Shown: piece by piece, positions 36,334-37,932 of the stretch
How positions within the stretch are numbered: the first letter of the stretch is position 1
Layout: each line of letters begins with the position of its first letter
UHGV virus genome: UHGV-1377012
Reading direction: 5' to 3' (one strand)
Source: a virus
Length of the DNA: 39,435 nt
Notes under the pieces: generated by a model
What the model saw: the letters and a program-made list of their open reading frames with translations, nothing else
What the model was told of the DNA's origin: nothing
Database searches by the model: none
Translations under genes and position numbers: made by a program

Positions 36334-36633
36334 GTGAGAAAGTTAAGCAGACTTGAAAAATATCACATGAACAAGGTTTCAATGCGCAGCCCTTCAAAGG
36401 TTGTTGCCGTTTCTCCTGCGGCGATAGAGATCGAAAAACGCGCGATTGAAAGAGAGAAAAAAGGGCAGTTCCGCATTGCCGCCCACCTTTGGCTTCAGTG
36501 TATGGATGTTGCTTCTGGTGATGTTGAGCGTGCAAGGATCGCGGTTCGCAGGGACCAATGTATCACAAAAGGTAACGGCCTTCGCCGTGGCGACTATAGC
36601 GGCATAGGATGTTGTGGGGTGGTTTATGACTAA
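36334..36633 (+). CDS. PerC-like transcriptional regulator candidate
   Basis: 99 aa, GTG start; AIEREKKGQFRIAAHLWLQCMD resembles the conserved PerC-family core (LE..G..R.AA..W...M) as I recall it. Confidence 0.45.
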   Translation: MRKLSRLEKYHMNKVSMRSPSKVVAVSPAAIEIEKRAIEREKKGQFRIAAHLWLQCMDVASGDVERARIAVRRDQCITKGNGLRRGDYSGIGCCGVVYD

Positions 36634-37276
36634 GAAATACACACTAATCTATGCAGATCCACCCTGGGTATACCGGGACAAAGCCGCAGATGGTAATCGC
36701 GGTGCCGGTTTTAAATATCCGGTTATGAGTGTGCTGGATATCTGCCGCCTTCCTGTGTGGGATTTGGCCGATGAAAACTGTCTGTTGGCCATGTGGTGGG
36801 TGCCAACACAACCACTCGAAGCACTAAAAGTTGTTGAAGCCTGGGGATTCCGTCTGATGACCATGAAGGGATTCACGTGGATAAAATGTGGTAGTCGACA
36901 ACCAGATAAACTGGTTATGGGTATGGGTCACATGACTCGCGCCAATAGTGAAGATTGCCTGTTTGCAGTAAAGGGAAAACTACCTCCGCGCATTAATGCA
37001 GGTATCGTTCAGTCATTTACCGCACCGCGGCTTGAGCATTCAAGAAAACCAGATGTCGTTCGTGAAAAACTTGTGCAATTGTTAGGCGATGTTTCTCGCA
37101 TTGAACTGTTCGCCCGCCAGTCGTCTCATGGCTTCGATGTTTGGGGTAATCAGTGCGAAGACCCAGCAGTGCAACTACACCCTGGATACGCGTTGGATAT
37201 TGCCAGATTAACAAATGCATTCAGCAATGCTCCGCTGTCACCAACAGACAACCAGGGGCGGGAGCGTGTAGCATGA
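36626..37276 (+). CDS. MT-A70-family DNA N6-adenine methyltransferase
   Basis: [12 protein letters not shown] carries the DPPW catalytic motif; an alternative GTG start lies at 36614. Confidence 0.75.
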
Positions 37277-37932
37277 ACCTATATCAACGCATCAATGGCG
37301 ATGACTGGTGCAATATCTTCGTCGTCGGCGATCTGCATGGGTGCTACACGCTGCTGATGAACGAACTCGACAAAGTTTCATTCGACCCGGCGCGAGATTT
37401 GCTTATTTCCGTTGGTGACCTTGTTGACCGCGGCGCTGAAAACGTCGAATGCCTGGATTTGATTACTATGCCGTGGTTCCGAGCTGTTCGTGGCAACCAT
37501 GAGCAGATGATGCTGGATGCACTGGTCAACGGCGGAAGTTTCGGACATTGGATGTCAAACGGCGGTGGATGGTGGCACCAACTTGATTCTGAGCAGGATG
37601 TGCAACTCAAATACCTTCTGCCAAAGATTACCAACCTCCCGATGATTATCGAACTGGTTACCGGCAATAAGAAGGTCGTCATCTGCCACGCAGACTACCC
37701 GCACAACGAATACGCATTCGATAAGCCAGTACCGGAAGAAATGGTGATATGGAATCGTGAGCGGGTTAGCGACGCGCAGGACGGTATTGTCTCGGAGATA
37801 ACCGGTGCCGATTTGTTCATCTTCGGTCATACGCCAGTACATCACCCACTGGTGTATGCAAACCAGATGTACATCGACACCGGCGCAGTGTTCTGCGGAA
37901 ATCTGACGCTTACCAAAGTCCAGGAAGGATAG
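37273..37932 (+). CDS. Ser/Thr protein phosphatase (metallophosphoesterase, lambda-PPase type)
   Basis: GDLHGC, GDLVDRG and GNHE motifs in canonical order; ATG at 37273 with GGAG upstream and ATGA overlap with the methyltransferase. Confidence 0.8.

Follow-up and report, generated by a model that had tools for sequence, protein, structure and literature searches.

The window, the whole 39,435-nt stretch of DNA analysed here (UHGV virus genome UHGV-1377012), carries at positions 36334-37932 three intact, overlapping genes on the plus strand, with open reading frames exactly as given in a preliminary description of this DNA. They encode a PerC-like protein, an MT-A70 methyltransferase and a lambda-type phosphatase, and lie among the following features:

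33451..33479, + strand: promoter-like site TTGACA-17-AATCAT, a weak candidate for the early-left promoter, from a consensus scan only
35935..35953, + strand: G+C-only hairpin between recT and alpA, with a 7-bp stem, a 5-nt loop and no T run after it
35976..36224, + strand: AlpA-family HTH protein (excisionase/regulator type), 82 aa, opening a coupled chain of five genes
36221..36337, + strand: 38-aa membrane ORF (phrog_17484, E 5e-25), coupled on both sides
36334 (GTG start)..36633, + strand: PerC-family small protein, 99 aa, assigned by Pfam PerC
36626..37276, + strand: predicted N6-adenine methyltransferase of the MT-A70 family (class beta, circularly permuted), an orphan of 216 aa, assigned by Pfam MT-A70 and its DPPW motif
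37273..37932, + strand: lambda-phosphatase (NinI) orthologue, 219 aa, in a terminal cassette slot
37935..39191, - strand: P4-type tyrosine integrase, convergent with the operon, from the ORF list and the H10407 and phiV10 annotations

The repressor gene (32775-33359) and its hairpin, which resembles a terminator (33380-33399), lie directly before the candidate promoter. Through position 37932 the consensus scan predicted no further promoter-like or terminator-like site on the plus strand and no lysogen-type promoter; the scan is a weak method that could miss a stationary-phase promoter like that reported for gp6-gp5 of phage PA8. The hairpin between recT and alpA has a fold energy of -17.3 kcal/mol (z-score -2.5), and its equivalent is labelled a transcriptional-pausing stem-loop in the epsilon15 record. 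Searches with Rfam and a tRNA scan found no RNA elements in the region. On this layout, all five genes of the chain would be transcribed from the promoter just 3' of the repressor gene, presumably after infection or induction and not in the stable lysogen.

The chain begins with alpA, whose product scores 24.2 bits on the Pfam model Phage_AlpA (cut-off 21) and matches phrog_66 (excisionase and transcriptional regulator). The gene is joined by ATGA to the membrane ORF, a gene also annotated in phiV10, epsilon15 and SPN1S. A GTGA joins the membrane ORF to the PerC-like gene, which overlaps the methyltransferase gene by 8 nt (ATGACTAA); the methyltransferase and phosphatase genes overlap by 4 nt (ATGA), and the phosphatase stop lies 2 nt from that of the integrase. 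The translational coupling previously proposed for the trio is thus borne out by its two overlaps, but the coupled chain comprises five genes rather than three. In 80 related methyltransferase loci the start of the gene nearly always overlapped the stop of the upstream gene, and the upstream genes were of many unrelated kinds. Methyltransferase genes of this kind are coupled as a rule, irrespective of what precedes them, and the coupling is no mark of a functional trio.

The window is a phiV10/epsilon15-like (Uetakevirus) prophage adjoining guaA. It shares 99.6% DNA identity with the prophage beside guaA in enterotoxigenic E. coli (ETEC) H10407 and 98% with phages vB_EcoP_PAS61 and BP9, which carry the same three genes including the phosphatase, and its gene order is syntenic with those of phiV10, epsilon15, SPN1S and Tyrion. 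The same 3.4 kb recurs at at least 95% identity in hundreds of E. coli genomes, and the three ORFs, their family matches and this recurrence are far above chance. The prophage is present in ETEC H10407, APEC O1 and many STEC strains. We read 36334-37932 as closing the early-left operon, which serves recombination and excision, in a temperate podophage of the phiV10/epsilon15 type integrated at the 3' end of guaA, and assign this best explanation, as a joint figure for the whole of it, a probability of about 0.7. The position first given for the genes, last in the early-left operon, holds, and all three genes are already known as the ordinary, annotated tail of the early operon in prophages of this type.

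The three genes differ in how they are distributed. The PerC-like and MT-A70 genes were found in all Uetakeviruses examined, whether phages of E. coli, Salmonella, Enterobacter or Klebsiella, which shows them to be conserved parts of the early-left module of this phage group. The phosphatase gene is sporadic, being present at three of 17 phiV10-type IMG/VR loci, and about 146 RefSeq E. coli records carry it at at least 95% identity; among the matches listed, all 25 rows at that identity have it beside the MT-A70 gene. Homology breakpoints fall exactly on the gene boundaries of the phosphatase cassette, which no compositional anomaly marks. The interval from the methyltransferase stop to the integrase stop is shown by these comparisons to be a swappable slot with at least three alternative cassettes, the phosphatase being one. 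The view of the whole segment as an accessory trio consequently survives for the phosphatase and fails for the other two genes.

The phosphatase is closely related to that of lambda (PDB 1G5B), to which it aligns collinearly and without gaps at 66% identity over 217 aa (PDB match E 5e-99), and it matches Metallophos at 59.1 bits, above the Pfam cut-off, and the NinI-like family phrog_246. The GDxHG, GDxVDRG and GNHE motifs and the distal histidines are all present. Nine residues, which we take from the lambda phosphatase structure literature to be the metal-binding and catalytic set (D20, H22, D49, R53, R73, N75, H76, H139 and H186 in lambda numbering), are found at identical positions, nine of nine. 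Scores against the equivalog models of the host proteins PrpA and PrpB fell below their cut-offs (NF008516, 267.6 bits against 326; NF007425, 224.3 against 332), which on sequence grounds makes the protein a relative and not an orthologue of the two. It would act as a Mn-dependent phosphoprotein phosphatase on host proteins. Copies in the nin regions of lambda and phi80 prophages in E. coli genomes form a separate group, with about 79% DNA identity to the gene in the window. Identification as a nin-region ninI was rejected on location, the gene not lying in the interval from the replication genes to Q. In lambda, ninI is not an essential gene (PMC10695390), and by analogy the phosphatase is probably dispensable for plaque formation.

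For the PerC-like protein, the profile-HMM confirmation that the preliminary description had called for came out positive: residues 35-80 align to positions 5-50 of the 90-position Pfam model (PF06069) with 30.1 bits against a gathering threshold of 22.6, and all 27 family members sampled match the model at E <= 0.01. Together with PHROG matches at E values from 1e-61 to 1e-120 and Pfam scores above curated cut-offs for all three proteins, this upholds the assignment to the PerC, MT-A70 and Ser/Thr phosphatase families, as well as the DPPW motif and the lambda type of the phosphatase. Resemblance to EPEC PerC amounts to 40% identity over 60 aa (BLASTP E 2e-10; hhalign probability 95.6%, E 1.2e-8). 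Support for the GTG start at 36334 comes from an ATG at the orthologous position in Salmonella and Enterobacter phages and from the conservation of residues 1-33 among the 27 homologues. A three-helix core is predicted at residues 28-81 (AlphaFold model of moderate confidence, mean pLDDT 72), and a sequence search of the PDB gave no match. A resemblance to the ANR (AraC negative regulator) family falls on the same helices and stays short of membership (NF033650, 23.8 bits against an NCBIfam cut-off of 32). We propose that the protein may be a small helical regulator that uses protein contacts to act on the transcription of genes in phage or host.

A different account of the segment sees in it three genes that serve lysogenic conversion independently of one another and are active in the lysogen, namely a methyltransferase altering the methylome or countering restriction, a phosphatase acting on host signalling, and a PerC-like switch for virulence regulons such as LEE. 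The methyltransferase is indeed an orphan with no nuclease adjoining it, the phosphatase is variable cargo related to PrpA and PrpB, the PerC-like protein has its 40% identity to EPEC PerC, and the host of phiV10 is, in the phage record, O157:H7, a LEE-carrying serotype. The methyltransferase operon of the Stx2a phage PA8, homologous to the gene here, is expressed in lysogens (PMC10810198). Yet the genes sit within the early-left operon, where no internal promoter was predicted. The 99.6%-identical prophage, moreover, resides in H10407, of the enterotoxigenic pathotype, which is not known to carry LEE. Phages of Salmonella, Klebsiella and Enterobacter, genera not known to harbour the LEE locus that PerC activates in E. 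coli, share the PerC-like protein and the methyltransferase as conserved components, and among the PerC homologues of E. coli LEE activation is limited to group 1 Pch proteins (PMC6265319). The previously suggested link to virulence regulons of E. coli is accordingly an unlikely main role for the protein. PchD and PchE are family members without activation of the LEE1/ler promoter, the activity defining PerC and PchA-C (PMC6265319). We consider the conversion of the lysogen by three such genes distinctly unlikely, and retain the reading of the segment as the end of an early operon.

The methyltransferase matches MT-A70 (PF05063) over all 172 positions of the model, with 78.6 bits (cut-off 23.9), and its matches in the PDB include Tetrahymena MTA1c and METTL3. 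The DPPW motif occupies residues 11-14 (ADPPW, 10-14), an N-terminal location that denotes the permuted motif order, and is invariant in nine aligned homologues. Among the five chain proteins PADLOC matched this one only (MTase_II, 256 bits). A type II restriction-modification system is not indicated, the neighbours being the PerC-like gene and the phosphatase and an adjacent endonuclease being absent. From its family the enzyme would be expected to transfer methyl groups to the N6 position of adenine.

Its closest characterised relative is the PA8 enzyme M.EcoPA8orf6770P (gp5), to which it is 83% identical over residues 1-187, the catalytic core. On its own the PA8 enzyme is reported to be nearly inactive, with weak, non-specific activity, and together with its partner PNB-2 to methylate 16S rRNA, preferring rRNA to DNA (PMC10810198). 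The methyltransferase in the window might likewise act on rRNA and modulate how often the prophage is induced spontaneously, as the PA8 enzyme reportedly does. Beyond the identity of the core, such a function would accord with the central segment at residues 86-140, which is of the PA8 and not the epsilon15 type, and would draw on published biochemistry and genetics of the PA8 enzyme (PMC10810198). It is weakened by the C-terminal tail, which beyond residue 187 has no relation to its PA8 counterpart, by the feeble and unspecific activity of the PA8 enzyme on its own, and by the missing specificity subunit: tblastn searches of the window with PNB-2 and PNB-1 returned chance-level matches alone (PNB-2, E > 3), and the PA8 arrangement, with PNB-2 encoded immediately upstream, is not found here. 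An rRNA-directed role in induction thus appears unlikely.

The alternative for the substrate is replicating phage DNA, whose methylation would blunt restriction or complete Dam-type methylation. For the related enzyme M.EcoGV, whose source is Fang et al. 2012, a second-hand account gives methylation of GATC (PMC10810198). A search of the literature found no methylome data for H10407. Protection of DNA from restriction by an orphan methyltransferase, as first suggested, is plausible but not secure, since the PA8 enzyme, 83% identical in the catalytic core, is reported to methylate 16S rRNA with PNB-2. We lean slightly towards replicating phage DNA as the target; host RNA such as 16S rRNA is, on the analogy with PA8, rather improbable, and it is possible, if doubtful, that the enzyme shows little activity without a partner.

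Could the PerC-like protein itself be this partner? The two proteins would then form one holoenzyme, a two-subunit adenine methyltransferase in which the PerC-like protein replaces the winged-HTH PNB-2 as the non-catalytic subunit and directs methylation of rRNA or phage DNA, tuning induction. The 8-nt overlap of the two genes and the presence of both in all Uetakeviruses examined agree with such a pairing, as does an independent locus (L083) where a protein with a winged HTH and a PerC domain is encoded 2 nt upstream of a methyltransferase 45% identical to that of the window. Characterised MT-A70 enzymes are, moreover, usually heteromeric (PMC10810198, PMC7544214), and the predicted fold of the PerC-like protein is nearer to MIT/TPR protein-binding modules than to HTH, although the MIT/TPR-like matches, the only ones that Foldseek returned from the PDB, are not significant (E > 0.2).

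The comparative evidence speaks against it. In phages of Salmonella, Enterobacter and Klebsiella the two genes are not neighbours but have one or two unrelated genes between them, and one locus (L022) keeps the methyltransferase and the phosphatase without a PerC-like gene. A survey of the upstream and downstream genes of 80 IMG/VR methyltransferase loci found no PerC-like or PNB-2-like gene in the fetched upstream flank (at most 3 kb) of 31 of them, and the overlap of the methyltransferase gene with its predecessor was seen whichever gene that was. Nor does the C-terminal tail of the methyltransferase change in step with the gene next to it. Comparison of profiles showed no relation between the PerC-like family and PNB-2 (hhalign probability 1%), and kinship of the two families was rejected, as was an obligatory partnership, given the diversity of upstream genes across the 80 loci. 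The adjacency of the PerC-like and methyltransferase genes is explained by shared synteny, and a holoenzyme of the two is very improbable; if it did exist, at least some 'PerC family regulators' would have the targeting of a methyltransferase, and not the activation of promoters, as their biochemical role.

As the tail of an early operon the segment has little import beyond correct annotation, in that two conserved early genes and one interchangeable cassette take the place of an all-accessory set of virulence type. Two aspects give it wider use. The characterised enzyme nearest to the methyltransferase is reported to methylate rRNA and to control the induction of an Stx prophage, and this widespread prophage is suited to show whether induction biology of the PA8 type extends beyond Stx phages. 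Natural prophage variants with and without the phosphatase at one defined slot also offer a clean comparison for the role of lambda-type phosphatases.

Among known systems, the H10407 prophage (ETEC_RS14480-14490) shows essentially no difference from the window, the same trio being shared at 98-99.6% DNA identity when PAS61 and BP9 are included. RefSeq names its products a PerC family regulator, an MT-A70 family methyltransferase and a serine/threonine protein phosphatase, starts the PerC-like gene 48 nt later than here and leaves the 38-aa membrane ORF unannotated. In phiV10 the pair corresponds to gp34-gp33 (PhiV10p34, 'transcriptional activator', and PhiV10p33, 'DNA methyltransferase'), each with 97% protein identity and with matching order, overlaps and site before a convergent P4-type integrase, but a 64-aa DUF1382 gene stands in place of the 219-aa phosphatase. 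The counterparts in epsilon15 are gp31 and the adenine methylase; unlike in the window, a small ORF lies between them and a transacetylase-repressor gene fills the last slot.

Outside this group the likenesses are confined to single genes. With the plasmid-borne PerC of EPEC (pMAR2) and the Pch proteins encoded by EHEC prophages, the PerC-like protein in the window shares a core of some 60 residues (40% identity); it differs from them in extending 33 residues further at the N-terminus and in a conserved C-terminus of another sequence (YSGIG..GVVYD). Lambda ninI belongs to the early-right operon, where it stands beside ninE and ninG in the nin region, whereas the copy in the window stands at the early-left end against the integrase. 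M.EcoPA8orf6770P is, like M.EcoGV, an MT-A70 enzyme with DPPW encoded near the integrase end of a temperate coliphage, as in the window, and its gene also overlaps the stop of the upstream gene; it differs in belonging to a Stx2a phage of the Sepvirinae rather than a Uetakevirus, and in having as partner the 143-aa winged-HTH protein PNB-2, to which nothing in the window corresponds.

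The window holds a complete phiV10/epsilon15-like (Uetakevirus) prophage. Alignment with ETEC H10407 places the last ~50 nt of host guaA at the right end (39314-39435), which puts the attachment site at the 3' end of guaA; guaA is separated from the integrase gene by a terminator-like hairpin (39314-39337, - strand). The 3.4 kb surrounding the genes for a PerC-like protein, an MT-A70 methyltransferase (MTase) and a phosphatase is 99.6% identical to the guaA-side prophage of H10407, and this region, which shares 98% identity with phages PAS61 and BP9, has matches in 650 of 5426 complete E. 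coli genomes. The prophage also carries a tRNA-Arg gene with anticodon TCT (23218-23294, + strand; ARAGORN; Rfam 71.7 bits).

The three ORFs lie on the + strand exactly where the preliminary description had put them, at 36334-37932, and are the last genes of a layout resembling the early-left arm of lambda: repressor-like gene, hairpin, promoter-like site, then packed genes.

Features of the early-left region and the adjoining integrase gene
32775-33359: repressor-like gene, upstream of a terminator-like hairpin and then the promoter-like site
33451-33479, + strand: promoter-like site (consensus match only)
35976-36224, + strand: AlpA-family gene
36221-36337, + strand: membrane ORF, 38 aa (phrog_17484, E 5e-25)
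36334-36633, + strand: PerC-like ORF, 99 aa, GTG start (ORF list)
36626-37276, + strand: MTase ORF, 216 aa, ATG start (ORF list)
37273-37932, + strand: phosphatase ORF, 219 aa, ATG start (ORF list)
37935-39191, - strand: integrase gene, convergent with the trio

After the promoter-like site comes a tight + strand array of two small ORFs, a MarR-like gene, a PD-(D/E)XK nuclease gene, recT, alpA and the trio, and a consensus scan predicted no further promoter-like or terminator-like site on the + strand from there through 37932. Given this layout, "end of the early-left operon" is a fair label, with a promoter recognized by consensus match only. Between recT and alpA lies a G+C-only hairpin (35935-35953, + strand; 7-bp stem, 5-nt loop; -17.3 kcal/mol, z-score -2.5) with no T run 3' of it, the equivalent of which is labeled a transcriptional-pausing stem-loop in the epsilon15 record.

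Translational coupling, previously proposed for the trio, is supported by overlaps of 8 nt between the PerC-like stop and the MTase start (ATGACTAA) and of 4 nt (ATGA) between the MTase stop and the phosphatase start. However, a GTGA overlap joins the membrane ORF to the PerC-like start and an ATGA overlap joins the alpA stop to the membrane ORF, so that the coupled chain comprises five genes rather than three. The membrane ORF is kept in phiV10, epsilon15 and SPN1S, although it is unannotated in the RefSeq H10407 record. At the other end, 2 nt separate the phosphatase stop from that of the convergent integrase gene (37930-37937) and no + strand terminator was predicted; transcription of the early-left operon would therefore be expected to continue into the integrase gene in antisense orientation. 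In epsilon15, unlike in the window, the corresponding junction contains ~150 bp with annotated RNase III sites.

All three genes had been termed accessory. The Uetakeviruses compared were phiV10, epsilon15, SPN1S, SPNIS2, Tyrion and a Klebsiella ST512 prophage. Each carries alpA, the membrane ORF, the PerC-like gene and an MT-A70 gene; the PerC-like gene and the MTase are separated by 0-2 variable genes (for DUF1317, a DGQHR-domain protein or small ORFs), the MTase and the integrase by one or two. In the Salmonella relatives SPN1S (L003, 3933-5518) and SPNIS2 (L010, 4048-5924), the gene directly preceding and overlapping the MT-A70 gene encodes a DGQHR-domain (DndB-like) protein. Two IMG/VR loci (L085, L088) combine the Uetakevirus-type AlpA and PerC-like module with an MTase gene (3001-3657) in the usual place that is a divergent allele of the HK639 type, 44-45% identical; this position thus keeps an MT-A70 gene despite allele replacement. 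The interval from MTase stop to integrase stop, in contrast, holds at least three alternative cassettes. Among 17 phiV10-type IMG/VR loci in which it could be resolved, it contained a 64-aa DUF1382 gene in 13, the phosphatase in three, and an 82-aa ORF with a 228-aa ORF behind it in one. This third cassette occurs in HEMP4 (L012, 4540-5769) and L018, its 82-aa ORF coupled to the MTase stop. All three cassettes start with an ATGA overlap with the MTase stop; allele homology has two breakpoints, one just 3' of GCATGAAC and one at the integrase stop. The phosphatase was found at ≥95% identity in 146 records from complete E. coli genomes, and among the matches listed at this level all 25 adjoin an MT-A70 gene, while the nin-region copies of lambda/phi80 stand apart as a group of their own (79% DNA identity). 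Thus, "accessory" fits the phosphatase alone.

The phosphatase is of the lambda type, as had been proposed: it aligns with the lambda enzyme over 217 residues with 66% identity and zero gaps, and keeps D20, H22, D49, R53, R73, N75, H76, H139 and H186. It exceeds the curated Pfam Metallophos cut-off (59.1 bits) and matches the PHROGs family 'NinI-like serine-threonine phosphatase' (E 1e-107). Against the equivalog models of host PrpA and PrpB it scored below both cut-offs. The lambda gene was non-essential in a genome-wide CRISPRi screen in which polar effects on Q were complemented (PMC10695390), supporting dispensability. By family membership, the phosphatase would act on host phosphoproteins.

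The PerC assignment also holds, both against the Pfam PerC cut-off (30.1 bits; curated cut-off 22.6) and against the founding member, EPEC pMAR2 PerC (40% identity over 60 residues, E 2e-10; 95.6% probability for a profile of 27 PerC-like homologues). PHROGs gives 'transcriptional activator' (E 2e-61); the ANR family scored below its cut-off (23.8 versus 32). The GTG start (36334) is judged real from sequence conservation, since orthologues in Salmonella and Enterobacter phages have ATG at the same position and residues 1-33 are conserved; the shorter RefSeq model would remove conserved residues. The subfamily was found in 36 phage records with one module type from Escherichia, Salmonella, Enterobacter and Klebsiella, and in prophages its range spans Enterobacterales. 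The LEE is not known to occur in the other genera whose phages keep this protein. This conservation, together with the finding that only group 1 Pch proteins activate the LEE (PMC6265319), makes the suggested link to E. coli virulence regulons unlikely as a primary role; incidental effects in O157:H7 lysogens of phiV10-type phages are conceivable.

The MTase covers the whole Pfam MT-A70 model (78.6 bits, positions 1-172/172, above the curated cut-off), matches the PHROGs family 'DNA methyltransferase' (E 3e-120) and contains the DPPW motif reported earlier (ADPPW, residues 10-14). Its closest solved structures are MTA1c, a ciliate DNA methyltransferase, and METTL3. Over its catalytic core (residues 1-187) it shares 83% identity with the MTase of Stx2a phages such as PA8, but the tail after residue 187 is unrelated to that of the PA8 enzyme. 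The protein appears mosaic: residues 86-140 match the type seen in Stx phage PA8 and in Yersinia YpM_39, and on either side the N-terminal part and C-terminal tail match that of Enterobacter phage Tyrion. HK639 MTase has a 22-residue insertion at the loop of the 86-140 segment. The PA8-type MTase is reported to raise the frequency of spontaneous prophage induction (Gong, Chakraborty and Koudelka, PMC10810198). Alone it was reported to be only weakly and non-specifically active; with PNB-2, a winged-HTH protein encoded by an upstream, overlapping gene, it reportedly forms a 1:1 complex whose preferred substrate is 16S rRNA (PMC10810198). The related M.EcoGV, when overproduced, is stated to methylate GATC in vivo (PMC10810198). 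No PNB-2 homologue was found in the window. As a working estimate, DNA is slightly more likely than not to be the target (probability roughly 0.55); that the enzyme has little activity without a partner is doubtful, and an RNA target somewhat more so.

A partner could in principle be the PerC-like protein, forming a holoenzyme with the MTase. Its predicted three-helix core (pLDDT 80-88; 72 overall) is nearer to MIT/TPR protein-binding modules than to HTH, with no match significant, and IMG/VR locus L083 offers an independent case: a 146-aa protein (2564-3004) that joins a winged-HTH-like N-terminal part to a PerC domain at the C-terminus (Pfam score exactly at the cut-off of 22.6; 84.6% probability in hhalign), encoded 2 nt upstream of a 45%-identical MTase. 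However, comparison of 80 IMG/VR loci encoding MTase relatives makes such a holoenzyme highly improbable. In nearly all, the MTase start overlaps the upstream stop by 4 or 8 nt, and the upstream genes are of many unrelated kinds (PerC-like, PNB-2-like, DUF1317, DUF1382, NinB, DnaB-like helicase, ribonucleotide-reductase-like protein, second methyltransferase), so the coupling is generic. About half have a PerC-like gene within 1.5 kb upstream, always in the same alpA-PerC-like module and mostly with RecT; 31 have neither a PerC-like nor a PNB-2 gene in the fetched upstream flank (up to 3 kb). The PerC-like profile is not related to that of PNB-2. Moreover, a deletion variant (L022, 2039-3651) keeps MTase and phosphatase without the PerC-like gene: its repressor gene is followed after ~370 nt by MTase, phosphatase and integrase, with alpA, PerC-like gene and recT all absent.

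PNB-2 homologues were encoded at eight of the 80 loci. The HK639 'regulator' gp37 (L009, 1912-2340) and two IMG/VR ORFs (L090, 887-1312; L092, 2573-2998) are such homologues, 53-54% identical to the PA8 protein and encoded upstream of MTases of the 44%-identity clade. In L092 the two genes adjoin directly, in HK639 a small gene separates them, and in L090 the distance is ~1.7 kb. The PNB-2/MTase pairing therefore reaches beyond Stx phages. A PerC-like/MT-A70 holoenzyme, or rRNA methylation beyond Stx phages, would add interest to the finding if true, but the comparative data do not favor either. The preliminary description is confirmed in its observation and supported in part of its interpretation. 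Everything it describes already carries annotation in the public records for this well-known group of phages, H10407 RefSeq naming the three products PerC family regulator, MT-A70 family methyltransferase and serine/threonine protein phosphatase.
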